From assembly GCA_913009335.1 (NCBI GenBank), contig CAJVXN010000007.1, forward strand, positions 1 through 59,855: a stretch of 59,855 nt of DNA. The letters are read 5' to 3'. Under the pieces are notes generated by a model, which was not told the origin of the DNA, did not search any database, and saw nothing but the letters and a program-made list of their open reading frames with translations. This stretch comes from an uncultured bacterium (GTDB lineage Bacteria; Omnitrophota; Gorgyraeia; Ghiorseimicrobiales; Ghiorseimicrobiaceae). Each line of letters begins with the position of its first letter. The stretch's first letter is position 1. Positions 1,138 to 56,770 of this stretch are shown here, in pieces. The position numbers and the translations under genes were made by a program.

Positions 1138-1638
1138 CTACAACTTTAATCCTTTATGCTTTATATAATGCTTAACTAATCCGCCGTCAGCTAGAAGCTT
1201 GCGCAACACAGGCGCAATAGGCTTAATAGTTATCTGCTTAGAGCTATTCTGATTAGTAATCATACCTCTATTTAAATCTACACTAATAACATCACCCTCT
1301 TTAATATTGCGCGTATCAGCCTCAATCAAAGCCAGGCCAATATTAAACGCATTACGATAAAAAATCCTGGCAAAACTCTTTGCTACCACTGCCGTAATCC
1401 CTGCTGCCTTTATTGCCAGAAGCGCCTGCTCACGGGATGAACCACATCCGAAATTTTCCCCCGCTACGATAATAGATTTTCCGGGTTTTATTCTTTTAAA
1501 AAAATGAGGATCTAAATCCTCCATTACATGCTTAGCAAGCTCATTAATATCAGTAATCGCGAATTTATATCTACCGGAAATAATCAAGTCAGTATTTACA
1601 TCATTGCCTAATTTTAAAGCTGATCCTTTAATCTTCAC
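1138..1638 (-). CDS. leuD: 3-isopropylmalate dehydratase small subunit (LeuD/HacB family)
   Basis: From the GTG at 1636-1638 the protein reads [24 protein letters not shown], a typical LeuD N-terminus. The ORF-track start at 1689 adds 17 in-frame codons that are a translated repeat element. Confidence 0.85.
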
Positions 1639-1688
1639 CCCGTCCTTCCTTCCCAAGCTTATCCGCCCTTTAGGAAGGGCGGGGTTCA
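1634..1688 (-). mobile_element. short TGAA-flanked inverted-repeat element (47-nt body at 1638-1684)
   Basis: mRNA sense: TGAA|CCCCGCCCTTCCTAAAGGGCGGATAAGCTTGGGAAGGAAGGACGGGG|TGAA. The terminal arms CCCCGCCCTTCC and GGAAGGACGGGG are complementary. Confidence 0.6.
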
Positions 1689-1739
1689 TATTTTACTAAC
1701 GATTTTGGGGAAATTAATACCAAATGCAGGAAATCATAG

Positions 1740-12181: not shown

Positions 12182-12333
12182 TTATTTTGACTCTCCCTTA
12201 TCCTTTTAATGAAACCACAATTTACGCAACGTTAACGTTCGTAAATTGTATGGTCGAATTAACCCCGCCATCGGCGGGGTAAGTTCGGATAAGTAAGTTA
12301 TGAGCACTATCGCTCCATAACTTACGTCCTCAC
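12182..12333 (-). repeat. A-B-C hairpin cassette (copy 1) filling the rpsE-rplO junction
   Basis: Module A is at 12217-12249 (ACAATTTACG..CGTAAATTGT), B at 12262-12280 (ACCCCGCC-ATC-GGCGGGGT) and C at 12293-12325 (GTAAGTTATGAGC-N6-GCTCCATAACTTAC). Confidence 0.8.
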
Positions 12334-12846
12334 TCATTTTTCTTCAGTCTCTGATTCTAATGCCTTGCTATCTAGCTTTCTAGCTCTCCTGATTTTTACT
12401 TTACTTAAGCCATCCAAAGTAGCCTTTACGGTATTAAGCGGATTATTGGATTTCAAACACTTTGTTAATATATCTTTAATGCCTGCAGATTCACAAACTG
12501 CCCTTACTGATCCGGCGGCAATAACTCCAGTACCTTCACTAGCAGGTTTAAGTAATACTTTTGCTGCTCCAAAATGACCAATAATCTCATGAGGTATGGT
12601 TGTATCAAGCATGCTTATCTTAATCATAGAATTCTTAGCACGGGTTATGCCTTTTTTTATCGCAGATGGAACTTCGTTGGCCTTGCCTAATCCCGCGCCA
12701 ACCTTACCTTTTGTATCTCCCACTACAACCAAAGCTGTAAAACAAACTTTTCTTCCCCCCTTGGTAACCTTGGAGACACGCTTAATGCTTACGATTTTTT
12801 CTTCTAATTCACTAGACTGTTTTCTAAAAGTATTCGGGTTTGCCAT
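12334..12846 (-). CDS. rpsE: ribosomal protein S5
   Basis: Contains [24 protein letters not shown]. Confidence 0.95.
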
Positions 12847-13752: not shown

Positions 13753-13880
13753 TTTAAATGAGCCCGCAACTTAACGATTATTAACATTTTCGTTAAGTTG
13801 TTCAGGCGAATTAATCCCGCTGAGTGTATCAAACTTATTAAACCCTCTTTACGAAGCGGGGAAAAACTTAAACTCCTTAA
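13753..13880 (-). repeat. divergent A(+B) hairpin cassette at the rpsH-rplF junction
   Basis: The A-like hairpin CAACTTAACGA..TCGTTAAGTTG is at 13767-13800, with distal arms TCCCGC...GCGGGG. In mRNA sense it ends GGGCTCATTTAAA directly before the rplF ATG. Confidence 0.6.
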
Positions 13881-16159: not shown

Positions 16160-16204
16160 TTAATGGCTTTGGCTATCGGATGCCAAACCATCGCCCTCTG
16201 GCTT
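16160..16204 (-). repeat. solo copy of the 44-nt repeat, overlapping the rpmC 3' end
   Basis: TTAATGGCTTTGGCTATCGGATGCCAAACCATCGCCCTCTGGCTT matches the units at 16446-16576. Confidence 0.85.
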
Positions 16205-16414
16205 ACTATTTTTTTCGCTTGTAGTTTTATTTTTATTTTGACTAACCAGAGTTTCTATTCTGGCAATATCTCTTTTAAACTTGGAAAATAAATGCGGCTT
16301 ATCCACTCTTCCGGCTTTACGCTGGTAATTCAATTTATGCAATTCCTCTTTAAAAGCGGTCTTCTTCTGAGCCAGTTCATCAGGACTTAAATTGTTAAAA
16401 TCATTTTTCTTCAT
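16160..16414 (-). CDS. rpmC: ribosomal protein L29 with a repeat-derived C-terminal extension
   Basis: The L29 core is LSPDELAQKKTAFKEELHKLNYQ...IARIETL. The last 14 codons (KPEGDGLASDSQSH) and the stop lie in a copy of the 44-nt repeat. Confidence 0.9.
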   Translation of the reverse strand: MKKNDFNNLSPDELAQKKTAFKEELHKLNYQRKAGRVDKPHLFSKFKRDIARIETLVSQNKNKTTSEKNSKPEGDGLASDSQSH

Positions 16415-16445: not shown

Positions 16446-16576
16446 TACTGGCTTTGGCTATCGGTTGCCAAACCATCGCCCTCTGGCTTAATGGCTTTGG
16501 CTATTTGGAAGCCAAACCATCGCCCTCTGGCTTAATGGCTTTGGCTATTTGGAAGCCAAACCATCGCCCTCTGGCT
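16446..16576 (-). repeat. 3 tandem copies of a 43-44-nt repeat between rplP and rpmC
   Basis: Units are at 16446-16488, 16489-16532 and 16533-16576. Plus-strand unit: TAATGGCTTTGGCTATTTGGAAGCCAAACCATCGCCCTCTGGCT. Each can fold as ATGG-TTTGGC...GCCAAA-G-CCAT. Confidence 0.9.
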
Positions 16577-16994
16577 AATATGAGTGTAAGTGTTTAACAA
16601 GCTTAGTACGAACGGGCAATTTAAATGATGCGCGTCTGAAAGCCTCCTTAGCTGCTTCCTCAGGTATGCCGCCTAATTCAAATAAAACCTGACCCCGCCT
16701 AACAACTGCTACCCAATGATCCAAATCCCCTTTACCTTTTCCCATACGGGTTTCAGCAGGTTTTTTAGTTACTGATTTATGGGGAAAAATCCTAATCCAT
16801 AGTTTCCCACCTCGACGCAGCTGCTTGGCGACGACTATACGCACGGCCTCGATATGATTATTCCTAATCCAACCATTCTCTAGCGACTTTAAACCGAACT
16901 CACCGAAGTTAACCTTACTGCCGCGAATACCCAGGCCCCGGCGCTTTCCGCGCTGTAATTTTCTATACTTTACTCTCTTGGGCATTAATACCAT
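16575..16994 (-). CDS. rplP: ribosomal protein L16
   Basis: N-terminus is M(VLM)[16 protein letters not shown]. The stop TAG abuts the first repeat unit. Confidence 0.95.
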
Positions 16995-17691: not shown

Positions 17692-18027
17692 CTATTTCCC
17701 TCTTAAATCTAACTCAATTTTTAAATGTGTTGTTCGCTTTAATATCGATGAGGCCCGCCCAAAAGCAGCTGCGCGAAATCTCTTCCATCGCACGCCCTCA
17801 TCTGCAGTAATGCGAGAAATATAAAGATTGTTCGACTCAACACCTTTTACTTTCGCATTAGCCACGGCAGAAAGCAGTGCCTTACGTACGTAATATTTCG
17901 GCCGCCTATCCACGTTATCAAGAGTTATCAATGCGCGAGATATATCTTTACCTCTAATCAAATTGATTACGTCCCTGACTTTTCGCGATGAGAGCCTTAA
18001 AAATTTACTTTCTGCTTTTGATATCAT
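17692..18027 (-). CDS. rplV: ribosomal protein L22
   Basis: 111 aa containing LRLSSRKVRDVINLIRGK. Confidence 0.95.
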   Translation of the reverse strand: MISKAESKFLRLSSRKVRDVINLIRGKDISRALITLDNVDRRPKYYVRKALLSAVANAKVKGVESNNLYISRITADEGVRWKRFRAAAFGRASSILKRTTHLKIELDLRGK

Positions 18028-18162
18028 ATTTATGAGACCTCAATTTACGCAACGTTAGCGTTCGTAAATTGTATGGTCGAATTAATCCGCCATTGCTTCA
18101 GTGGCGGATAAGTTCAGACAAGTAAGTTATGAGCGTTATCGCTCCATAACTTACGTCCTCAC
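18028..18162 (-). repeat. A-B-C hairpin cassette (copy) at the rpsS-rplV junction
   Basis: Module A is at 18041-18071, B at 18085-18109 (ATCCGCCA-N9-TGGCGGAT) and C at 18122-18154. Confidence 0.8.
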
Positions 18163-18450
18163 TTATGTTTTATCCACAGCTTTCTTAGCCTTTACTCCGC
18201 CGTGTTTTCTGAATGTCCGCGTTGGCGCAAATTCACCCAACTTATGCCCTACCATATTCTCAGTAATAAATACGGGAATATGATTTTTACCATTATGCAC
18301 TGCAAATGTAAGACCAACGAAATCCGGAATAATAGTTGACCTACGTGACCAAGTCTTAATTGGCTGCCTGGTGCCGGATCTACGTGTCCGCTCAACCTTC
18401 TTTAATAACTTCTCATCTATAAAAGGACCTTTTTTAATTGAACGTGGCAT
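18163..18450 (-). CDS. rpsS: ribosomal protein S19
   Basis: N-terminus is [18 protein letters not shown]. Confidence 0.95.
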
Positions 18451-21094: not shown

Positions 21095-21232
21095 ATTTTA
21101 ATGAGACCGCAATTTGCGAAATTTCAATTTTCGTAAATTGTATGGTCGTTTTAATCCGCCACTGAATCAATGGCGGATAAGTTCGGACACATAGGTTACG
21201 AACGCTTATCGCTCCGTAACTTATATCCTCAC
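21095..21232 (-). repeat. A-B-C hairpin cassette (copy) at the rpsJ-rplC junction
   Basis: Module A is at 21110-21140, B at 21154-21178 and C at about 21190-21224. It begins immediately after the rpsJ stop and ends CTCATTAAAAT before the rplC ATG. Confidence 0.8.
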
Positions 21233-21532
21233 TTATTTAATTTCCGCAGCTACCCCCGAAGGAAGATTTAATTTCCTCAGCGCATCAACGGTTTTTGCCG
21301 TTGGATCCACTAGCTCAAGAAGGCGTCTATGTGTAAATAAACCAAACTGCTCTCTAGCTCTTTTATCAATGACCGGAGACTTAAGAACCGTATATATCTC
21401 TTTCTTTGTCGGAAGAGGAATAGGACCTGAAACACGAGCCCCTGTTCTTTTGGCTGTCTCTACAATCTCCAGGATCGATTGATCCAGAAGCCTATGGTCA
21501 TAAGCTTTTAACTTAATACGTATCGTCTGCAT
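21233..21532 (-). CDS. rpsJ: ribosomal protein S10
   Basis: N-terminus is [19 protein letters not shown]. Confidence 0.95.
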
Positions 21533-21627
21533 TTTAATGAGACCGCAATTTACGCAACGTTAACGTTGCGTAAATTGTATGGTCGAATTAACCCCGCCAA
21601 AGGCGAGGTAAGTTCCTATCTAACAAA
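21533..21627 (-). repeat. A-B hairpin cassette (copy) at the tuf-rpsJ junction
   Basis: Module A is a perfect 14-bp stem, CAATTTACGCAACG-TTAA-CGTTGCGTAAATTG, at 21546-21577. Module B is at 21591-21609. Confidence 0.8.
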
Positions 21628-46933: not shown

Positions 46934-46991
46934 AATTATTCTCCTTTTTTATAAATATTCTTTATACTACTATTCAATATCTCGCTTACGC

Positions 46992-47076
46992 ATCCGCCCC
47001 TGATTCAATGGCGTATAAACCTCGGGATAAATTCGAACAGATAAATTATGAGCGTTACCAATCATAACTTAAGTCT
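46992..47076 (-). repeat. B-C hairpin cassette (copy lacking module A) downstream of rpsP
   Basis: ATCCGCCCCTGATTCAATGGCGTAT is B-like. AAATTATGAGCGTTACCAATCATAACTT is C-like. Confidence 0.65.
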
Positions 47077-47319
47077 TTATTTATACTTTTTGTACAAGCT
47101 TTTTACCGTAGCGCTCATGCGCGCGCCCTTAGATATCCAATAGTCAATACGCTCTTTTTTAAGAGATACGACTTTAGGTTTACGCGCAGGGTCATAATAA
47201 CCCACCTCTTCAATAAAGCTGGAATCCCTGCTCTTAGTAGAATCCATAACCTTAATCCTGAAAAAATATCTTTTCTTTGTTGCCTTGCTTGGTCTTCCCA
47301 ATCTTATCACTACTGCCAT
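47077..47319 (-). CDS. rpsP: ribosomal protein S16
   Basis: N-terminus is MAVVIRLGRPSKATKKRYFFRI, and GYYDP is present. Confidence 0.95.
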   Translation of the reverse strand: MAVVIRLGRPSKATKKRYFFRIKVMDSTKSRDSSFIEEVGYYDPARKPKVVSLKKERIDYWISKGARMSATVKSLYKKYK

Positions 47320-48924: not shown

Positions 48925-49088
48925 AAATGAGCTTATAACTTACAGAGTGCCTTACCGCACGATGTAAGTTATTTATGCGAATTAACCCCGCCCCTTTTTA
49001 CTGCTAGGTGTATCTTCATAGTAGAAAGAGGCGGGGTAAGTTCAGATTTATGACTTACGTCGGCATAAAACCTCCGTAAGCCATGTCT
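48925..49088 (-). repeat. rearranged hairpin cassette (C-like, long B, C-like) at the hisI-trpE junction
   Basis: The hairpin ATAACTTACA..TGTAAGTTAT is at 48935-48972. ACCCCGCC...GGCGGGGT at 48985-49037 carries a 37-nt insert. ATGACTTACG..CGTAAGCCAT is at about 49049-49085. Confidence 0.7.
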
Positions 49089-49436
49089 TCAACTTATTCT
49101 CCTATAAAAACAACTCCTATTGCCGGTATGACAGGCAACTCCCACCTGTCTTACCTGTATCAGTAAAGCATCCATATCGCAATCATAATACATGGATTTT
49201 ACAAACTGGAAATGTCCGGATGTCTCTCCCTTAACCCAAAACTTCTTACGTGAGCGGGACCAAAAACATGTCTTGCTAGTTTTAATAGTCCGCTTAACAG
49301 ACGCCGCATTCATGTATGCGACCATAAGGATATCTTTCTTCTTATAATCCTGAATGATTGTTACAATTAATCCTTTATCATCAAACTTTAAATCCTTGAC
49401 TTTAAATTTTATTTCAAGCTTATTATTATTTTTCAC
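49089..49436 (-). CDS. hisI: phosphoribosyl-AMP cyclohydrolase
   Basis: 115 aa with GETSGHFQ and [12 protein letters not shown]. The GTG start at 49434-49436 is formed by the repeat-element end. Confidence 0.9.
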
Positions 49437-49488
49437 CCCGCTCTTCCTTTCTTCTGCTTATCCCTGCCCTTAGGAAGGGCTGGGTTCA
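49432..49488 (-). mobile_element. short TGAA-flanked inverted-repeat element (49-nt body at 49436-49484)
   Basis: mRNA sense: TGAA|CCCAGCCCTTCCTAAGGGCAGGGATAAGCAGAAGAAAGGAAGAGCGGGG|TGAA. The left TGA is the hisF stop. Confidence 0.6.
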
Positions 49489-50259
49489 TATCCTCACACT
49501 TACTCCTTTTTCCGAAAGATAATTCTTAACGCCGGCAATAGAAAGTTGACGATAATGAAATAAAGATGCCGCCAAAGCCGCGTCCGCGCAGCCCTTAGTT
49601 AATACATCATAAAAATCCGAAACACTTCCTGCGCCCCCTGAGGCAATCACGGGGATCTTAACGGCACCTGATACGGCCTTAGTTAATTCCAAGTCATAAC
49701 CATTCTTCGTACCATCAGCATCCATACTCGTAAGTAAAATCTCCCCTGCTCCCAACTTCTCTGCTTTTTTTATCCATTCAATAGCATCTAACTCTGTAGG
49801 GGTCCTTCCACCGTTTATATAAAGCTCCCAGCCAGGCGGTTTACCTTCCTGGGGTTCTCTTCGTTTAGCGTCAACCGCAATTACAATACACTGACTTCCG
49901 AAACGACGGGAAGTCGCTGATATTAAATCAGGATGCTTTATTGCGGCAGTATTCATAGAAACCTTATCCGCCCCCGCGTTAAGTAAATCCCGGATATCCT
50001 CAGTATTACAAACGCCTCCGCCTACGGTAAATGGCATAAAAATGCTCTCGGCAACTCTTTTAACTACATCTATCATTATTCCGCGCTTATCCGAACTTGC
50101 CGTAATATCTAAAAAAACCAGCTCATCGGCACCTTCACTATCATAATAAATCGCACTTTCGACAGGATCTCCGGCGTCCTTTAATTCTTTAAATTTGACA
50201 CCTTTAACAACGCGTCCGTCTTTTACATCCAAACAAGGGATTATTCTCTTAGTTAACAT
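49486..50259 (-). CDS. hisF: imidazole glycerol phosphate synthase cyclase subunit
   Basis: Begins [20 protein letters not shown] and is 257 aa. Confidence 0.95.
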
Positions 50260-51007: not shown

Positions 51008-51613
51008 TTAAAGTTTAATAAAATTCTCTAAGATTTTTAATCCTGTTTTCTGACTCTTCTCCGGATGAAACTGTATGCCGAAGATATTATCCTTTGAAAT
51101 TATTGATGCGAATTTAGCACCATAATCAGTTGTTGTAATAATTATACCTTTATCATCCGGGCAAACATAATAGGAATGACAGAAATACACATAGCTTTTA
51201 TCTTCTATTGCCTTCAATAAAGGATTATCTCCATTTTTCTCTATCTGGTTCCATCCAATATGAGGAACTTTTATTCCTTCATCTTTAAATCTCACTACCT
51301 GGCCGGGAATTAAGCCAAGCCCAGCCTCGCCCGGGGCCTCCTGACTACTATCAAGCAATAAATGCATACCTAAACAAATACCTAAAAAAAGCAGTCCTTG
51401 TTTAATTTTATCCTTTATAAGCTTATCTAAACTTCTTTTTTTTAGTTCAGTTGCGGCATCGCCGAATGCGCCTACTCCCGGTAAGATAATTTTATCCGCT
51501 GTATCAAAATCCTGAGCATTTACAATAATCCTGGTATCGGCACCAAAAGAATTACAGGCCTTTACAACACTACCCAAATTTCCCATTCCGTAGTCGATTA
51601 CAGCAATTTTCAC
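51008..51613 (-). CDS. hisH: imidazole glycerol phosphate synthase glutaminase subunit
   Basis: From the GTG at 51611-51613 the protein reads MKIAVIDYGMGNLGSV, the canonical HisH start. The alternative in-frame ATG at 51658 lies inside the repeat element. Confidence 0.88.
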   Translation of the reverse strand: MKIAVIDYGMGNLGSVVKACNSFGADTRIIVNAQDFDTADKIILPGVGAFGDAATELKKRSLDKLIKDKIKQGLLFLGICLGMHLLLDSSQEAPGEAGLGLIPGQVVRFKDEGIKVPHIGWNQIEKNGDNPLLKAIEDKSYVYFCHSYYVCPDDKGIIITTTDYGAKFASIISKDNIFGIQFHPEKSQKTGLKILENFIKL

Positions 51614-51738
51614 CCCGTTAGAGATTTGATCTCCTTTAGTTTTATGTAATGTACCCATAATTATAGAAACTATCCCGTTTATAAAGTCTCTGCCTTATTA
51701 GACGGTCACCTCTGGTGACCTATCTCTAACGGGGTTCA
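51609..51738 (-). mobile_element. long TGAA-flanked inverted-repeat element (122-nt body at 51613-51734)
   Basis: Perfect 13-bp terminal inverted repeat CCCCGTTAGAGAT / ATCTCTAACGGGG. An internal hairpin GGTCACC-TCT-GGTGACC is at 51704-51720. Confidence 0.6.
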
Positions 51739-52357: not shown

Positions 52358-53589
52358 TTTTTCTCTCCTTCAAATCTCACCTTAACAGACTCGGCATGTT
52401 TTTTTAAGCTTTCAATTTCGGCTAACTTTTCTAAAGGCGTCCTAACTTTTTCAAGAGCCCTTCTGGAATATGAAATAATGTGGCTTGATTTCATAAAATC
52501 AGATAAAGATAACCCTGAGAAAAATCTAGCTGTTCCTGTTGTAGGAAGTACGTGAGACGGCCCCGCGACGTAATCGCCGGCTGCAACGGGTGTAAAATCG
52601 CCTAAAAATATTGCACCGGCATTTTCTATCTTCAAAAGGAACTTCTTAGGATTCTTAAGCATAATCTCTAAATGTTCCGGCGCAATGCGATTAGAAATTT
52701 CAGCTGCCTCATTTAAATTCTTAGCAAGAATAATATACCCTGAAGAAACTCTATTTTTTATCTCTTTCGCAAGATGCTTACTTGTCGTAATTAATATAGC
52801 CAGACCATTTAAGTGTTCTGCCTGCGCGGCTAAATCAGCGGCAACATATGCTACATTAGCATTATGACGGGCTACAACTACCAGCTCCGTAGGACCGGCA
52901 ACCATATCAATACCTACAAATCCAAACACCTGGCGCTTGGCTTCAGTTACATACCTATTACCCGGACCAACAATTTTATCAACCTTTGGTATTGTCTTAG
53001 TGCCGAAAGCTAATGCCGCAATAGCCTGAGCTCCTCCGATTTTATAAATCTCTTTGACTTTTAATAAATCCGCAACAACCAGTATATGAGGATTGATATT
53101 ACCGCTTGCGTCCGGAGGGCTTACCAGTACGATTTTCTCCACTCCTGCCAGCTTTGCCGGAAGAACACTCATATAAACAGAAGACACTAAAGGAGCGGTA
53201 CCCGCGGGAACATAAACTCCCACGCTTCCTAACGCGGTCAACTTCTCACCCAGAATAACTCCGTCTTCATCCTTTATCTTCCAGGATTTACGTATCTGTT
53301 TTTTATAAAATTTATTTACATTTTCAATCACCATCTTAAGGGTCGATATAAAATCAGGGCTAATATTCTGATAGGCACCGCTTATCTCCGCCTGAGTTAC
53401 ACGGATACCTTTGGAGGTAAGTTTTACCTTATCAAAGCGACGCGTATACTTTATTAACGCTTCATCTCCGGATAAACGCACATCGTCAACAATCTGACGC
53501 ACAACATTCTCAACACGTCCTTTTCGCTGTAAATAGCGAGAGCAAATCTTATCCAGTTCTTTTATGTTTGTTGAACGAATAATTTTCAT
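52354..53589 (-). CDS. hisD: histidinol dehydrogenase
   Basis: 411 aa with GPGNRYV and QAEH motifs. It has ATGA overlaps with both alaS and hisB. Confidence 0.93.
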   Translation of the reverse strand: MKIIRSTNIKELDKICSRYLQRKGRVENVVRQIVDDVRLSGDEALIKYTRRFDKVKLTSKGIRVTQAEISGAYQNISPDFISTLKMVIENVNKFYKKQIRKSWKIKDEDGVILGEKLTALGSVGVYVPAGTAPLVSSVYMSVLPAKLAGVEKIVLVSPPDASGNINPHILVVADLLKVKEIYKIGGAQAIAALAFGTKTIPKVDKIVGPGNRYVTEAKRQVFGFVGIDMVAGPTELVVVARHNANVAYVAADLAAQAEHLNGLAILITTSKHLAKEIKNRVSSGYIILAKNLNEAAEISNRIAPEHLEIMLKNPKKFLLKIENAGAIFLGDFTPVAAGDYVAGPSHVLPTTGTARFFSGLSLSDFMKSSHIISYSRRALEKVRTPLEKLAEIESLKKHAESVKVRFEGEKK

Positions 53590-56183
53590 AATAGCATACC
53601 CTCAATAATTCTCTCTATTTCTTTTGGATTTTTCAATAATCTCTCCCACTCTTCTTCCGTCTTCTCCCAATCTTTATTCTTCATGCCGCCCTGGATTAAA
53701 TCAGGCCTTCCTCCGCCTTTTAAGCCTAGCTTCTTTATAATCTTTTTTGCATCATACCCGCTGCCTTTAACATCTTTCGATAACCCAAGAATAAACAATC
53801 CATTCCCGGAAAAACTGCTAAAGAGAAAGGTGATAAAAGGACATGGAATCTTACTCTTTAATAAATCTAACGCTTTGCGCATATTCTGCATATCGCAAAC
53901 TTTAATATCAGCGATCAAAAGATTAATACCTTTAACAGCCTTAACTTTTTCAAGAATTGACGGGACATCTCTTTCAAACAACTTTAAATAATGATTAGAC
54001 AGATCTTTTTCTAATTTTTTAATATATTTAAATTTGGCTTCTATTTTCAGCAGGAGCTTATCCCGGGAAACTCCAAACTCATCTGCCAGCTTTGAAATTA
54101 CTATCTCATCTTCCTGGAGTTTTTTTTGGGCGAATTTTCCGGTTATTGCTTCAATCCTTCTAACTCCCGAAGCAATAGAACTTTCCGATACAATCTTAAA
54201 TAAACCAATCTGCTCCGTATTATCTAAATGCAAGCCTCCGCAAAGCTCTTTTGAATAATCACCCACCGATACCATTCTTACCGTATCCTGATACTTCTCG
54301 GAAAAAAACGCAAGGGCACCTTCTTTTTTTGCATCACTTAGCGAGAGTTCGCGCTTTATTACTTTATTGTTTAAATAAATATATTCATTAACTAATTCTT
54401 CCACGCGGTTAATCTCTTGCTCACTCATACGTTTAAAATGCGCGAAGTCAAATCTTAAGTATTCATCAGATACCAAAGAGCCTTGTTGCCTGATATGCTC
54501 ACCCAGTACGCGACGCAGCGCGGATTGCAAAAGATGTGTTGCCGTATGGTTTTTCGTAATATCTAACCGAACATCCTTATCAACTATAGCACGAACTTTA
54601 TCACCCTCTTTAAAATTACCCTTTGCTATTTTTACATAATGGATAATAGCATCGTTTATTTTTTTAGTATCATAAACCGCAGCACTCGCGGCATTAGACT
54701 CTATCCTGCCTCTATCGCCAATCTGACCGCCGGACTCAGCATAAAAAGGTGTTAAATCTAAGATTATCTTTGTTTCGTTTTTGTCCGCGATAACATCCAA
54801 GACTTTCGCATCTATTGCGTCAGTTTCATAACCCACGAATTCCGTCTTAAAATCTATATCCGCGCTTCTTGCCCCTCCAAATACATCAGCTACTATACTG
54901 CTTGCTTCTTTAGATTGAATACGCCTTTCCTGCATCAACTTAGCTACTGCCTGCTGATCAAACTTAATCCCTTTTTCTTTCAACAGCTCCAAAGGATATC
55001 CGTGTGTATCATAAAGCATAAATGCTTCTTGGGGCGAAAGTTTACTTTTGTCTCCTACAATCCGCTCACCTTCAGAAAGTGTCTGGGCAAATCTTTCCTC
55101 CTCAGCCTTAATAACCAAAGAAATATTCTCACGATGAGCTTCCATCTCCGGATAAACCTCTTTCATAACCTTAACAACAATAGGTACAATCTTATACATA
55201 AACGGTTTTTCACATCCTAAGCCCATTGCCTTAAAATAAGCCCGACGGATAAGTTTCCTAATAACATACCCTCTTTCCTCGTTTGAAGGCATAACGCCGT
55301 CCGAGATAGCGAATACTGCGGCACGGACATGATCGGCTATTGCATACAGCTGTCTCTCTATTTTTTTAGCTATAATACTCTGAGAAAGCCCTAAAGCGCT
55401 TTTTATTGATTCTATTATCGGCTCAAATATATCAATCTCAAAATTCGTCTTCTTCCCCTGAAGCACTGCCGCCATACGCTCAAGACCCATACCCGTATCA
55501 ATATTCTTCTGAGGCAAAGGCTCTAATTTATTCGGCCCAATACGGTTAAACTGTGTAAATACTAAATTCCAGACCTCAACAAATCTTCCACAGTCACAAG
55601 CAAGAGAACAATCAGGCTTTTTACAACCTTCGCTCTTACCCCAATCATAAAAAATCTCCGAGCATGGTCCGCAGGGCCCATTTGGCCCGTCAGCTATAGC
55701 ATTAGCCGGCCAGAAATTATCCTTATCACCAAACTTTACGATTTTTTCTTCAGGGATTTTTACTAAATCCCGCCATATTCTATAGGCCTCATCATCATCC
55801 TTGTAGACTGATACCCATAACTTTTCTGATGGCACCTCTAAAACTTCATGTATAAATTCCCAACCCCAAAGAATTGCTTCTTCTTTAAAATAATCCCCAA
55901 AAGAAAAATTGCCTAACATTTCAAAGAACGTATGATGACTGCTTGTCCTGCCTACATTATCAAGATCCCCGGTCCGTAAACACTTTTGACAACTAGCAGC
56001 GCGGCGAAAATCACCCACTTCACCTAAAAACTGTTTCTTAAACTGGCTCATCCCTGCCGAAGTAAATAAAACAGTTAGGTCATCCTGAGGAATGAGGGAA
56101 TCCGAAGATATAACTCTATGCCCTTTTGATTTGAAAAAATCGAGGAAATCACTCCTTAATTTATCAGTCGTCTTAATCTTCAC
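53586..56183 (-). CDS. alaS: alanyl-tRNA synthetase
   Basis: 865 aa containing LRSDFLDFFKSKGH. The GTG start at 56181-56183 is formed by the repeat-element end. Confidence 0.93.
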   Translation of the reverse strand: MKIKTTDKLRSDFLDFFKSKGHRVISSDSLIPQDDLTVLFTSAGMSQFKKQFLGEVGDFRRAASCQKCLRTGDLDNVGRTSSHHTFFEMLGNFSFGDYFKEEAILWGWEFIHEVLEVPSEKLWVSVYKDDDEAYRIWRDLVKIPEEKIVKFGDKDNFWPANAIADGPNGPCGPCSEIFYDWGKSEGCKKPDCSLACDCGRFVEVWNLVFTQFNRIGPNKLEPLPQKNIDTGMGLERMAAVLQGKKTNFEIDIFEPIIESIKSALGLSQSIIAKKIERQLYAIADHVRAAVFAISDGVMPSNEERGYVIRKLIRRAYFKAMGLGCEKPFMYKIVPIVVKVMKEVYPEMEAHRENISLVIKAEEERFAQTLSEGERIVGDKSKLSPQEAFMLYDTHGYPLELLKEKGIKFDQQAVAKLMQERRIQSKEASSIVADVFGGARSADIDFKTEFVGYETDAIDAKVLDVIADKNETKIILDLTPFYAESGGQIGDRGRIESNAASAAVYDTKKINDAIIHYVKIAKGNFKEGDKVRAIVDKDVRLDITKNHTATHLLQSALRRVLGEHIRQQGSLVSDEYLRFDFAHFKRMSEQEINRVEELVNEYIYLNNKVIKRELSLSDAKKEGALAFFSEKYQDTVRMVSVGDYSKELCGGLHLDNTEQIGLFKIVSESSIASGVRRIEAITGKFAQKKLQEDEIVISKLADEFGVSRDKLLLKIEAKFKYIKKLEKDLSNHYLKLFERDVPSILEKVKAVKGINLLIADIKVCDMQNMRKALDLLKSKIPCPFITFLFSSFSGNGLFILGLSKDVKGSGYDAKKIIKKLGLKGGGRPDLIQGGMKNKDWEKTEEEWERLLKNPKEIERIIEGMLL

Positions 56184-56287
56184 CCCGCTCTTCCTTCCTT
56201 CTATCTATCCCTGCCCTTAGGAAGGGCGGGGTTCACCCCGTCCTTCCTTCTCAAGTTTATCCCGTCCTCTAAGAAGGACTGGGTTTA
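56179..56287 (-). mobile_element. tandem dimer of short inverted-repeat elements (bodies at 56236-56283 and 56183-56231)
   Basis: mRNA sense: TAAA|CCCAGTCC...GGACGGGG|TGAA|CCCCGCCC...GAGCGGGG|TGAA. The leftmost TAA is the recX stop. Confidence 0.6.
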
Positions 56288-56770
56288 CAAACTATCTATG
56301 ACATCCGTTACAACATCAGGGCTAAAACCCCGGCGCAGAAGAAATCCTTCTATTCTTTGTTTTTCCTTACAATCAAATTTAGCTGATATTATCTTTTTAA
56401 ATTTACTCCTTACTAAATTTAATATTACATCATATTCTGAATAATTTTTGCTTACCTCGGAAAATACGGAATCTATTATTTTTCCATCAACACCCTTTTG
56501 CCTTAATTCAAACCTAAGTTTTCGAAAACCTAAAGGCTTTTTAATCCTTTGACTTACCCACCTGGCAGCAAAATTAAAATCATCCAGATAGCCGGATTTT
56601 TTCAATGAAATTATTACTTGATCTATTATAAGACTACTAAACTTGTTCTCTTTTAACTTAATAAGTAATTCTTCCTCTGAACGTAATCGGACTTTTAACA
56701 GGCGGGATACATAGCTTATTGCTTTGCGTAATCCTGGCATATCCGGTATACCTTTAGCGCAATCACTCAT
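56285..56770 (-). CDS. recX: RecA regulator RecX
   Basis: 161 aa with three-helix repeats (YLDDFNFAARWV, LRQKGV, LLRRGF). It sits between recA and alaS as in many bacteria. Confidence 0.8.
   Translation of the reverse strand: MSDCAKGIPDMPGLRKAISYVSRLLKVRLRSEEELLIKLKENKFSSLIIDQVIISLKKSGYLDDFNFAARWVSQRIKKPLGFRKLRFELRQKGVDGKIIDSVFSEVSKNYSEYDVILNLVRSKFKKIISAKFDCKEKQRIEGFLLRRGFSPDVVTDVIDSL

Follow-up and report, generated by a model that had tools for sequence, protein, structure and literature searches.

A short MITE-like element at gene starts in Omnitrophota appears to rebuild the start codons that it splits

Introduction

The usual view of transposable elements is that they disrupt genes and can persist only between them. 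The leuD gene of a 59,855-nucleotide stretch of Omnitrophota DNA (the whole stretch analysed, hereafter the window) raises the question of how a repeated element can lie on a start codon. [quoted passage not shown] It knew of no described family with this behaviour, and a full-text literature search likewise found no such element, the nearest being the REP2 repeats.

Results

Five elements occupy four gene junctions in the window

The window carries five elements at four junctions, namely leuD, hisI, hisH and a tandem pair before alaS. Four of these are copies of ~48 nt, and the fifth is a 122-nt relative (Table 1). The single TGAA-flanked architecture originally described for the four junctions holds for the right flank of all five elements, but for the left flank of only four. 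The exception is c4, whose left flank TAAA (56284-56287) includes the TAA stop of an upstream 161-aa gene (ORF 56285..56770). The two alaS elements have the TGAA at 56232-56235 in common, and the right TGAA of c5 lies at 56179-56182. The 122-nt relative has different inverted repeats but the same CCCCG/CGGGG ends and TGAA flanks (51735-51738 and 51609-51612), with the hisB stop (TAA) and an ATG on one side and hisH (GTG 51611-51613) on the other. These matches far exceed chance expectation: TGAACCCMG occurs four times in the window versus 0.38 expected, a count reached in none of 100 shuffles, and CGGGGTGAA occurs five times versus 0.18 expected.

Table 1. Coordinates of the elements and the associated start sites in the window (R1, covariance model).
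Feature	Positions	Strand	Evidence or remarks
c1, 47-nt element body at leuD, CCCCGCCCTTCC...GGAAGGACGGGG	1638..1684	-	R1 51.1 bits, E=4.7e-11
c1, left inverted repeat	1673-1684	-	sequence, folds
c1, local hairpin (internal complement)	1663-1682	-	sequence, folds
c1, SD-like purine tract GGAAGGAAGGA	1643-1653	-	
c1, right inverted repeat	1638-1649	-	
leuD original ATG (1687-1689) and left TGAA (1685-1688)	1685..1689	-	sequence
leuD regenerated GTG (1636-1638; element's last G plus TG of duplication) and right TGAA (1634-1637)	1634..1638	-	
leuD (3-isopropylmalate dehydratase small subunit), 166 aa from GTG	1138..1638	-	homologue alignment
c2, 49-nt element between hisF and hisI	49436..49484	-	R1 60.8 bits
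c2 left TGAA (49485-49488), hisF stop TGA (49486-49488), original hisI ATG (49487-49489)	49485..49489	-	
hisI regenerated GTG (49434-49436) and right TGAA (49432-49435)	49432..49436	-	hisI CDS 49089-49436
c3, 122-nt relative with a different body	51613..51734	-	perfect 13-bp inverted repeat CCCCGTTAGAGAT
c4, 48-nt element, first of tandem pair before alaS	56236..56283	-	R1 45 bits
c5, 49-nt element, second of tandem pair before alaS	56183..56231	-	R1 67.1 bits
alaS start GTG	56181-56183	-	CDS 53586-56183; N-terminus VKIKTTDKLRSDFLDFFKSKG

At leuD, the body, both TGAA flanks and the GTG are located on the minus strand as first described, including the 4 nt that separate the end of the purine tract (1653-1643) from the GTG. 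The assembly GCA_011051015.1 carries the leuD junction of the window. Unoccupied look-alike starts are also present, at hisD (53589) and hisB (52357). Two features were absent from the initial annotation. First, the left repeat at hisI and alaS forms the stop codon of the upstream gene. At hisI, the site before insertion was an ATGA stop/start overlap at which the hisF ORF (49486..50259) ends. Second, the reading frame from the ATG at 1689 crosses the element into leuD without a stop (51 nt), which creates an ORF of 183 aa.

Empty sites in close relatives indicate insertion

Deletion of the leuD body plus one TGAA gives ATGAAGATTAAAGGA, which was predicted to be a normal LeuD start. Consistent with this prediction, a 90%-identical orthologue begins MKIKG and its DNA reads ...ATGAAGATCAAAGG, with no insert. 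The empty leuD sites in the related loci L001 and L002 read ATGAAGAT(C/T)A. All of the 120 LeuD homologues listed align from the restored start and cover the last 84-91% of the 183-aa ORF, and nearly all of them are 165-169 aa long. The hisI site is empty in a 92%-identical orthologue (L065, ...GTGAGGATATGAAAAAAAAT) and in L066, and is filled in the same-species contigs L064 and L068. The hisH site is empty (ATGAAAATTGCTGTA) in an 82%-identical orthologue (L063). Thus, uninterrupted ATGAA is found in close relatives at all three of these junctions. A further presence/absence difference was observed between two contigs that are ~95% identical: at the same site, L034 has an additional element that L005 lacks, and this copy entered the old ATGAG beside an existing element.

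Orthologous copies are conserved across diverged genomes, as they would be if a leader or regulatory RNA had simply been inherited at each junction. We assign this explanation a negligible probability, because the 48-nt sequence is found in front of dozens of unrelated genes and also in tandem, and because the precise empty sites at three window junctions and the difference between L034 and L005 refute it. Furthermore, Rfam searches of the whole window at the gathering score, and around the elements at E<=10 or E<=1, returned only tRNAs and noise.

The family has terminal inverted repeats and a target-site duplication that varies with the site

Family copies were collected by two pattern scans with the flanks left unspecified, which yielded 56 non-redundant regex-defined copies and later 62, from Omnitrophota MAGs and metagenomes. 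The patterns fixed the left arm and the internal hairpin, and the sample therefore favours intact copies. As anticipated from the window, the 4-nt direct repeat and the location at gene starts recur throughout this set. Nearly all copies read NTGAA|CCCCG...CGGGG|TGAA in a single orientation and lie on the first codon of conserved genes. They are 46-58 nt long with no coding capacity, and a consensus of 54 copies has 12 nearly invariant terminal pairs, with the repeats CCCCGCCCTTCC / GGAAGRGCGGGG. The left repeat has decayed in some copies and the right repeat stays intact. All genome matches are to Omnitrophota MAGs except for one, which is binned as Planctomycetales, and no match was found in 72,556 plasmids or in viral contigs.

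The left 4-mer is TGAA in 47 of 56 copies and the right 4-mer in 53 of 56. The flanking repeat covaries with the site, being TGAG/TGAG in three loci (L050, where the site is leuD, and L034 and L005) and TGGA/TGGA in one (L061), and relatives show TTTA/TTTA and TAAA/TAAA. These data bear on whether the right TGAA might instead belong to the element, with no true duplication, as would be the case for a single-strand IS200/IS605- or REP/RAYT-type element inserted 3' of TGAA. Such an element would fit the left-end hairpin beside a fixed tetranucleotide, the strictly one-way orientation, and the five cases (c4, L009, L029, L043 and L044) in which the left flank differs and the right is TGAA. However, every right flank other than TGAA equals its left flank, true terminal inverted repeats are present, and the divergent left flanks can be attributed to decay after the new stop comes into use. 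We therefore rejected this explanation, which we regard as very unlikely.

The combination of terminal inverted repeats, a fixed-length duplication that varies with the site, short noncoding multicopy bodies and precise empty sites supports the identification of the element as a non-autonomous, MITE-like DNA insertion of ~48 bp with 12-bp terminal inverted repeats and a 4-bp target duplication, as the initial annotation had proposed. Across the window and 405 kb of related loci, neither an autonomous element or transposase bearing these ends nor a candidate IS1380-like (DDD/DDE) transposase was found. When pairs of CCCCG ends separated by at most 4 kb were screened for a parent element, with the requirement that inverted repeats and duplications match, the sole results were genes lying between two individual small copies.

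Several matches were set aside during this census. L023, L024, L030, L037 and L045 are hairpin-only and terminator-like, L033 is an array of GC-rich, REP-like repeats flanked by TCAA, and L056:2434 is a chance match within a gene. Separately, one copy in L009 represents a subfamily with different inverted repeats that keeps the local hairpin through matching sequence changes. Subfamilies that have the canonical ends and likewise duplicate 4 bp also occur away from starts, either in frame inside ORFs (L003:7028-7074 and L036:708-733), inside another repeat (L036:1309) or at a gene 3' end (L036:360).

A GTG start codon is regenerated at the right edge

The last G of the element and the TG of the duplication together regenerate a GTG, in agreement with the original description of leuD, and every non-tandem copy has a long ORF after it. 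On visual inspection, the N-termini resemble those of PheT, L36, L29, TrpA, NusG, QueC/E, Rpe, NadD, RadA, L9 and EF-Ts; LeuD, HisH and HisI are the gene identities assigned by homology search. In two copies (L022 and L035), the terminal G of the element has mutated to A and yields an ATG. These sequence comparisons support the conclusion that the regenerated GTG is a working start. An SD-like AAGGARG motif lies 6-9 nt before the GTG within the right inverted repeat, so the well-spaced purine tract noted at leuD extends across the family, and this tract probably serves as the SD for the regenerated start. No promoter-like site was found inside the element. A coding leader peptide (MNPALPKG...) was considered and rejected, given lengths of 46-58 nt with no modulo-3 bias and stops at inconsistent positions.

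The old upstream ATG might still be used, either for a read-through N-terminal extension or as the point from which a ribosome hops or shunts over the folded stem and lands on the matching GUGAA, in the manner of T4 gene 60 and yeast mitochondrial byps. About 88% of copies retain the original start codon, which is in frame without a stop at leuD and in six other copies. The gap of ~50 nt, the 5' hairpin, the SD-like tract before the landing site and the UGAA on both sides would also suit such an event. Nevertheless, we consider this explanation highly improbable. The values of (body + 4) mod 3 are split 22/19/15 among 56 copies and therefore indicate no reading-frame constraint, and most of the uORFs that begin at old ATGs end in the element or are out of frame. 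In addition, the right codon has twice been improved to ATG, several old copies no longer have the left ATG, and the left TGA is the upstream gene's stop in 59% of copies, which by itself explains the conservation of the left repeat.

Copies are concentrated at stop/start junctions

Among 49 evaluable copies, 29 (59%) have the left TGA/TAA as their upstream stop. The stop lies 0-10 nt upstream of the element in 11 copies and falls inside it in five, and in four of those five it is the TAA of the element's loop. As a result, 45 of the 49 (92%) occupy tight same-strand junctions, in which the upstream ORF ends within 10 nt of the element or inside it. A background set of 61 unoccupied NTGAA starts in the same DNA, for which the gene calls are crude, contains 13 overlaps and 30 tight junctions (49%). 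Both differences are significant (Fisher, p = 3.5e-5 for overlaps and p = 1.2e-6 for tight junctions). Four copies are without a nearby upstream ORF, including the free-standing leuD copy. These findings refine the original description of an ATG stranded on the left of the element, which is correct for leuD but does not represent the family, where the left copy is mostly the upstream gene's TGA stop (29 of 49).

The initial annotation also proposed that ATGAA starts are targeted. Copies do indeed sit at starts, but what is preferred is the sequence TGAA, which accounts for 95% of duplications, and not start codons irrespective of their sequence. We considered whether the insertion machinery itself selects starts or stop/start overlaps, through an extended motif or DNA or RNA features, without selective filtering. 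This would agree with the location of about 60 of 60 canonical copies at starts, and with occupancy in the window, where 5 of 14 NTGAA starts are filled versus none of about 27 other non-coding TGAA sites. It would also accommodate apparently independent insertions in the same genes (leuD and possibly trpA) and the recent extra copy in L034. However, only about 22% of genes start with NTGAA compared with the 95% of duplications that are TGAA, and therefore a sequence rather than start function appears to be recognised. Flanks outside NTGAA have no conserved bases, and the subfamilies with the same ends noted above are located elsewhere. On balance, we view such targeting as unlikely.

The distribution in one orientation and only at starts instead probably reflects a TGAA preference combined with selection. 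The genomes are compact (about 91% coding). In the window, non-start intergenic TGAA sites outnumber NTGAA starts by ~2:1, and selection alone must account for the finding that none of about 60 copies lies at such a site.

Predicted RNA folds suggest a link to upstream translation

The two alternative folds originally proposed for the leuD transcript, a local hairpin and a terminal pairing that hides the purine tract, are both predicted for the family. In silico, the minimum-energy fold is the terminal stem, with a mean of -24.4 kcal/mol (range -18 to -33) versus -17.6 for the best SD-free fold, and a local hairpin of about -17.6 kcal/mol is predicted in nearly all copies. The terminal stem is ~7 kcal/mol more stable on average, and therefore the default state is predicted to be one in which the SD is hidden. 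The SD has a computed probability of about 0.25 of being unpaired. When the 9 nt after the stop are blocked, the computed probability that the region from the SD to the GUG is unpaired rises from 0.23 to 0.58. In the 29 copies with a left-repeat stop, the stem begins 1 nt downstream of it. Overall, a stable predicted structure covers the SD and start, and the upstream ORF ends at its foot or within it in 45 of 49 copies. Covariation was rejected as evidence for an RNA structure, because the search patterns fixed the left arm and because inverted-repeat symmetry at the DNA level predicts the same pairs.

Our working model, which we consider probable, unites these observations. Insertion at TGAA (rarely TGAG or TGGA) duplicates 4 bp, and copies last almost only where the TG is that of a start codon, mostly at ATGA junctions. 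The left TGA still terminates the upstream gene, the terminal G of the element and the right TG form a GTG for the downstream gene, and the right inverted repeat would be read as an SD (AAGGARG) 6-9 nt upstream of it. In the mRNA, the inverted repeats would pair into a stem (about -24 kcal/mol) in which the SD and the first base of the GTG are buried. A ribosome ending the upstream gene could melt the left arm and expose the SD, after which the left arm's internal complement would hold the open state. Translational coupling would thereby be kept across a gap of about 48 nt. At leuD, a short uORF from the old ATG could do the melting. Insertions within genes would disrupt them and not be retained, reverse-oriented copies would lock the SD in a tight local hairpin, and copies without upstream translation would silence the gene.

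The coupling step in this model would be mediated by RNA structure, and RNA-unfolding coupling is known to operate over +52 nt in E. coli rpmI-rplT (PMC12548453). A structure directly after an upstream stop can also reduce coupling (reviewed in PMC12548453). The initial annotation had likened the two folds to a translational switch or thermometer. We think that unmasking by upstream translation is likelier than a thermometer: a predicted stem of -18 to -33 kcal/mol is, in our judgement, very stable for a thermometer, and no Rfam match to a thermometer family was found even at E<=10. Several observations count against the coupling model. The inverted repeats would be expected to pair just as well if their symmetry served transposase binding, and the stem may lack an RNA function; four copies have no upstream ORF nearby; and the 122-nt hisH copy has no well-spaced SD.

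An alternative is that the same mobile element is functionally inert. The 5' hairpin would form first during transcription and leave the SD free, and starts and tight junctions would merely be a niche protected from deletion, with no coupling. The local hairpin predicted in nearly all copies, and kept with matching changes in the L009 subfamily copy, agrees with this explanation, as do the compact genomes, the persistence of old copies across species and the four free-standing copies. However, the greater predicted stability of the terminal stem argues against it. Also, the enrichment at upstream-ORF junctions (92% versus 49%) is not predicted, because free-standing starts would be equally protected from deletion. 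Finally, in several orthologous occupied pairs the variable middle of the element is more alike (identity 0.83-0.95) than in random pairs (0.68), even though third-codon positions have diverged further (0.53-0.73). We consider an inert element to be a serious but distinctly less probable explanation than gated coupling.

A different form of coupling is conceivable in which the element is a mobile coupling device. The stem would loop out the 48-nt insert and place UGA beside GUG, restoring the arrangement of the former AUGA overlap, re-initiation would occur across the hairpin or by melting it, and the element would have spread through a phylum by keeping the stoichiometric coupling of operon genes or making it tunable. 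This looped-out arrangement would be a bacterial analogue of ribosome shunting, and a stronger variant would have the machinery actively recognise stop/start overlaps. To this proposal, including its stronger variant, we assign a low probability.

Discussion

The family appears adapted to very compact genomes, since it occupies the 4-bp TGA-A stop/start site at which the duplication rebuilds both signals, and it seems to supply its own ribosome-binding site. Its distribution poses a testable question about how target choice and selection contribute to site-exclusive transposon patterns. There are also consequences for annotation. Five of 67 window genes are affected, and the true start is changed in many Omnitrophota housekeeping genes. 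Gene callers disagree at element sites (216 vs 201 aa for hisH and 166 vs 183 aa for leuD): one leuD product (P0001) begins at the regenerated GTG, and the hisH start has been called at an internal ATG at 51658 (P0121). If the stem truly gates the SD on upstream translation, the element would constitute a natural, portable coupling cassette that bears on the evolution of operon stoichiometry and could be useful as a part for synthetic biology.

The proposed gating resembles coupling at rpmI-rplT (+52 nt) and between the MS2 coat and lysis genes (PMC12548453), where the SD and start of the downstream gene are likewise buried in a structure that has one arm at the upstream ORF's end, and a spacing of ~50 nt lets terminating and initiating ribosomes coexist. 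Those structures are fixed and gene-specific, whereas the Omnitrophota element would be a portable, transposed cassette. Programmed bypassing (T4 gene 60 and Magnusiomyces byps, the latter mobile) also involves an insert of ~50 nt whose two edges match, with a stem-loop on the 5' side and an SD-like tract that precedes the landing site. However, bypassing takes place inside an ORF during elongation, whereas the left edge here is a start and/or an upstream stop and no ORF continuity is required. Bypass is not needed to explain our data, because ordinary initiation at the GTG does so.

As a DNA element, the family resembles piggyBac/IS1380 transposons in its CCCCG/CGGGG ends and 4-bp duplication, since those transposons have CCC... 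termini and an A/T-rich 4-bp duplication (PMC10813416); the likeness extends to the ends and the duplication length, and the Omnitrophota target is TGAA, not TTAA. Rickettsia palindromic elements, like other repeats that enter genes in frame, are also palindromic mobile repeats tolerated against coding sequence, and the in-frame relatives at L003:7028-7074 and L036:708-733 are comparable. In contrast, members of the canonical ~48-nt subfamily do not contribute to the encoded protein, as their length has no modulo-3 constraint, and they lie at the gene boundary rather than inside the gene.

Further parallels are found among bacterial MITEs and start-fused repeats. Neisseria Correia/NEMIS elements are also short, noncoding, multicopy and polymorphic, with inverted repeats and a fixed-length duplication, and they form hairpins when transcribed and can carry expression signals. 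Unlike the Omnitrophota element, known MITEs are mostly intergenic and supply promoters, IHF sites or RNase sites; the element described here lies on the start codon, its TGAA duplication keeps both the stop and the start, and its inverted repeat would double as an SD. Neisseria REP2 and Borrelia IR repeats carry a ribosome-binding site and start codon fused to many ORFs and have internal stem-loops (Delihas 2011, PMC3184786), and the Omnitrophota element likewise appears to bring a ribosome-binding site and part of the start codon. REP2 differs in having a promoter and its own ATG, with no terminal inverted repeats or target duplication, whereas the Omnitrophota element has both of the latter, contributes only the first base of the start codon and has no promoter-like site.

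Elements in the window

The minus strand at leuD reads ...gttagtaaaatATGAA / CCCCGCCCTTCCTAAAGGGCGGATAAGCTTGGGAAGGAAGGACGGGG / TGAAGATTAAAGGA..., and the body, the old ATG and the regenerated GTG lie exactly where the initial annotation had placed them in proposing a MITE that splits this start codon (copy c1). The four junctions of one architecture described there are also evident, and they hold five elements (c1 to c5) marked by flank-plus-end motifs. TGAACCCMG occurs 4 times (0.38 expected) and CGGGGTGAA 5 times (0.18 expected), counts that no shuffle reached. A covariance model built later detected no other canonical copy within the window, where all genes lie on the minus strand. The best protein matches are to Candidatus Omnitrophota.

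The start of leuD is ambiguous: an ATG in the same frame lies 17 codons farther upstream, across the element, and would give 183 aa instead of 166 aa. For hisH, the start chosen by gene callers is an ATG within the 122-nt element (P0121, 216 aa; orthologues ~201 aa). Antisense to c1, a terminator-like site is scored at the local hairpin and the TTCATATTT that follows it; this site could keep antisense transcription from entering pilT, or it may mean nothing.

Coordinates of elements, relatives and other repeats (window positions unless a related locus, prefix L, is named)
Feature	Coordinates	Strand	Description
c1, leuD	body 1684-1638; old ATG 1689-1687; GTG 1638-1636	minus	read from sequence; free-standing, 50 nt after pilT
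c2	49436-49484		between hisF and hisI, splitting their overlap
c3, hisH	51613-51734		relative at a start; 122 nt, different body, CCCCG/CGGGG ends and TGAA flanks as in the others; hisB TAA directly precedes
c4	56236-56283		first of tandem pair before alaS; upstream gene's stop kept as TAA
c5	56183-56231		second of tandem pair before alaS
leuD ORF	1138-1689		ambiguous start
hisH ORF	51008-51658		as called
Terminator-like site	1662-1683	plus	antisense to c1
Tandem arrays	L046:762-916; L059:5207-5326; L034:2817-2917		two or three elements
Relative	L003:7028-7074		in frame within PabB/TrpE-like protein; 47 nt plus TTTA duplication, adds 17 aa
Relative	L036:708-733		in frame within cysteine-rich protein; 26 nt plus TAAA duplication, adds 10 aa
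Relative	L036:1309-1334		inside another repeat
Relative	L036:360-417		in 3' end of a gene
Relative	L009:453-523		at a start
Second repeat family	12203-12352; 13753-13880; 18026-18181; 21095-21251; 21532-21620	minus	~110-150 nt, three hairpins
Second repeat family, partial	near 46990-47090 and 48925-49075; L036 ~1220-1420		
44-nt tandem repeats	16467-16598		two copies identical; degenerate copies 16182-16225, 16555-16598
Different MITE	L063:1430-1620		~190 nt
Tandem hairpins	L033:2940-2986		each TCAA-flanked

Evidence for insertion

In all 120 listed LeuD homologues the alignment begins at the codon matching the GTG; these homologues leave the beginning of the 183-aa ORF uncovered, spanning its final 84-91%, and almost all have lengths of 165-169 aa. 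Precise empty sites, sought in relatives as an uninterrupted ATGAA, exist at leuD, hisH and hisI. The leuD site is uninterrupted in a 90%-identical orthologue (L001, ...ttaatATGAAGATCAAAGG) and in a 72% orthologue (L002, ...aaaATGAAGATTACAGG), the hisH site is empty in an 82% orthologue (L063, ATGAAAATTGCTGTA), and the hisI site is empty in a 92% orthologue with nearly identical flanks (L065, ...GTGAGGATATGAAAAAAAAT) and in L066. In contigs of the same species from other samples (L062, L064, L068), the elements are present and unchanged.

The proposed 4-bp repeat is a true target-site duplication, because right flanks other than TGAA match their own left flanks (TGAG/TGAG in L050, TGGA/TGGA in L061), as also in L034, which reads ATGAG/element/TGAG/element/TGAG. 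Only one of these two elements is held by L005, which is ~95% identical, and thus at least one insertion is recent.

Target sequence and junction context

Genomes were scanned with a both-ends pattern and metagenomes with a left-hairpin-only pattern, with flanking bases unspecified in both. These scans yielded 56 copies after duplicate removal (62 with the covariance model; consensus CCCCGCCCTTCCTAAAGGGCnGGGGTATAnAnnnGAAAGGAAGAGCGGGG), and none in the plasmids and viral contigs scanned. Of the source genomes with names, all are Omnitrophota MAGs but one, which is binned as Planctomycetales. Among the 56 copies, the left 5-mer is ATGAA in 36, GTGAA in 8 (4 within tandem arrays), TTGAA in 2, ATGAG in 2 and ATGGA in 1, with one truncated at the end of its contig (TGAA) and 6 degraded; the right 4-mer is TGAA in 53, TGAG in 1 and TGGA in 1, plus one copy with degraded ends, for which the boundary call is one base early. 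Since TGAA makes up 95% of duplications, versus an NTGAA share of ~22% among crudely called gene starts of this DNA, the element recognises this sequence and not start codons as such.

Members of the tandem arrays share single TGAA/TGAG repeats, and some are variant bodies without the internal hairpin (e.g. CCCCGCCCTTCCTAAGAAATGTGCATTAAGCAGTATTAGGAAGAGCTGGG); the arrays suggest repeated insertion next to existing ends. Hairpins in the GC-rich, probably unrelated locus L033, CCCCGCCCTT(CTT)AAGGGCGGGG, were set aside as a REP-like array caught by the hairpin pattern.

A point missed by the initial annotation is the stop/start overlap context. The upstream same-strand ORF was mapped at 49 evaluable non-tandem copies. 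Its stop is the left repeat's TGA (once TAA) in 29, such that an ATGA overlap is split, and lies 0-10 nt upstream of the old start in 11. The ORF runs into the element in 5, and 4 copies, including c1, have no upstream ORF within 30 nt. Four of the run-in ORFs (L003, L029, L043, L044) stop at the element's own loop TAA, with the left repeat degraded in three, and the fifth (L026) stops at a TGA on the boundary of the element. Compared with the 61 NTGAA starts of this DNA that carry no element (13 overlaps, 30 tight junctions), occupied sites are enriched for overlaps (Fisher p = 3.5e-5) and for tight junctions (p = 1.2e-6).

Regenerated start codon and RNA fold

The element does supply a replacement start codon: a long ORF runs from the regenerated GTG in all copies not internal to tandem arrays, and in L022 and L035 the last G of the element is A, converting GTG to ATG. 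N-termini after the GTG, judged by eye, look like those of PheT, L36, L29, TrpA (three loci), NusG, QueC, QueE, Rpe, NadD, RadA, RpiB, L9, EF-Ts, LeuD (three loci) and AlaS; homology searches underlie the LeuD, HisH and HisI identities only, the others being assigned by eye. Because (body length + 4) mod 3 is distributed 22/19/15 and uORFs from the old ATG stop at inconsistent positions, the element is not regularly translated as protein. As for the SD also attributed to the element, the candidate is an AAGGARG tract, invariant in the alignment, 6-9 nt upstream of the GTG within the right inverted repeat.

Both of the mutually exclusive folds noted initially were recovered, and they are not equal in stability. 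In each copy the fold of lowest energy is the one in which the two inverted repeats pair with each other, hiding the SD and the G of GUG, with the stem foot 1 nt after the left UGA. This terminal stem averages -24.4 kcal/mol over 56 copies, versus -17.6 for the best SD-free fold, which is the 5' local hairpin. The predicted probability that the SD is unpaired at equilibrium is ~0.25; blocking the 9 nt that would be covered by a terminating ribosome raises that for the SD-to-GUG segment from 0.23 to 0.58. In the L009 copy, from a subfamily with other inverted repeats (CCCCGCACCTTC), the internal complement matches its own left arm, and so the three-part design is not peculiar to one sequence.

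Alongside the insertion, regenerated start and context statistics observed here, we infer coupling and a selective filter. The element proposed is MITE-like, prefers TGAA and makes a 4-bp duplication. At an ATGA junction this duplication would remake both signals, with the stop on the left and the start (G plus TG) on the right; the right inverted repeat would provide the SD. The stem would mask this SD until a ribosome finishing the upstream gene, or at free-standing sites such as leuD one translating from the old ATG, opens the left arm. Reverse orientation would lock the SD in a tight local hairpin; this trap and the need for upstream translation would account for the single orientation and the junction enrichment.

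Age of copies, relatives and other repeats

Diverged genomes share occupied sites at several orthologous junctions. Where the identity of third codon positions in a pair is only 53-73%, the element's variable middle is 83-95% identical, compared with 68 +/- 10% for random pairs; these shared copies are old and conserved. The window leuD copy is no more like those of L015 and L050 than random pairs are and is absent from the 90%-identical relative, and therefore it is probably an independent, fairly recent insertion.

Other-bodied elements with CCCCG ends and 4-bp duplications also occupy non-start contexts. If one enzyme moves all these relatives, insertion is not confined to starts, and the exclusivity of the canonical subfamily would come from its cargo plus selection.

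The second repeat family has hairpins GTAAGTTATG...CATAACTTAC, CCCCGCC...GGCGGGG followed by TTAATTCG, and CAATTTACG...CGTAAATTG, and its end, ...GGTCTCATTAAA(AT)ATG, falls right on the start codons of genes within the ribosomal-protein operon. Nested in the third hairpin of the L036 copy is a mini element (CCCAG...CTGGG) of 26 nt, which has a TGAA duplication. The 44-nt tandem repeats (GCCAAACCATCGCCCTCTGGCTTAATGGCTTTGGCTATTTGGAA) are intergenic, upstream of a gene starting at 16414. The different MITE in L063 (inverted repeats CCCaaATTTTgCATTAGAAA, 5-bp duplication ATTAA) occupies the interval from the hisB stop to the hisH ATG in this relative, which lacks the 122-nt element at its hisH start; downstream of hisH there is a similarly long spacer. 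Genomes with these loci seem rich in junction-dwelling MITEs.

Comparison with known systems

The MITE criteria applied all agreed with such an element, except that no parent IS and no transposase turned up in the 405 kb of DNA examined. Its CCC ends and the duplication of 4 bp are reminiscent of piggyBac/IS1380, which is a lead only. An IS200/IS605- or REP-type element is ruled out by the covarying flanks and terminal inverted repeats, and an RPE-type coding insertion is ruled out for the canonical element; the in-frame relatives in L003 and L036 do resemble Rickettsia palindromic elements. Rfam holds no match, and literature searches turned up no MITE described at start codons or stop/start overlaps. 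Between stop and start the gap is ~48 nt, similar to the +52 nt at E. coli rpmI-rplT, where coupling through the unfolding of RNA has been documented (PMC12548453). The nearest described repeat carrying an RBS and start codon is Neisseria REP2, which is without inverted repeats or duplication (PMC3184786). Unlike the element, REP2 has a promoter.
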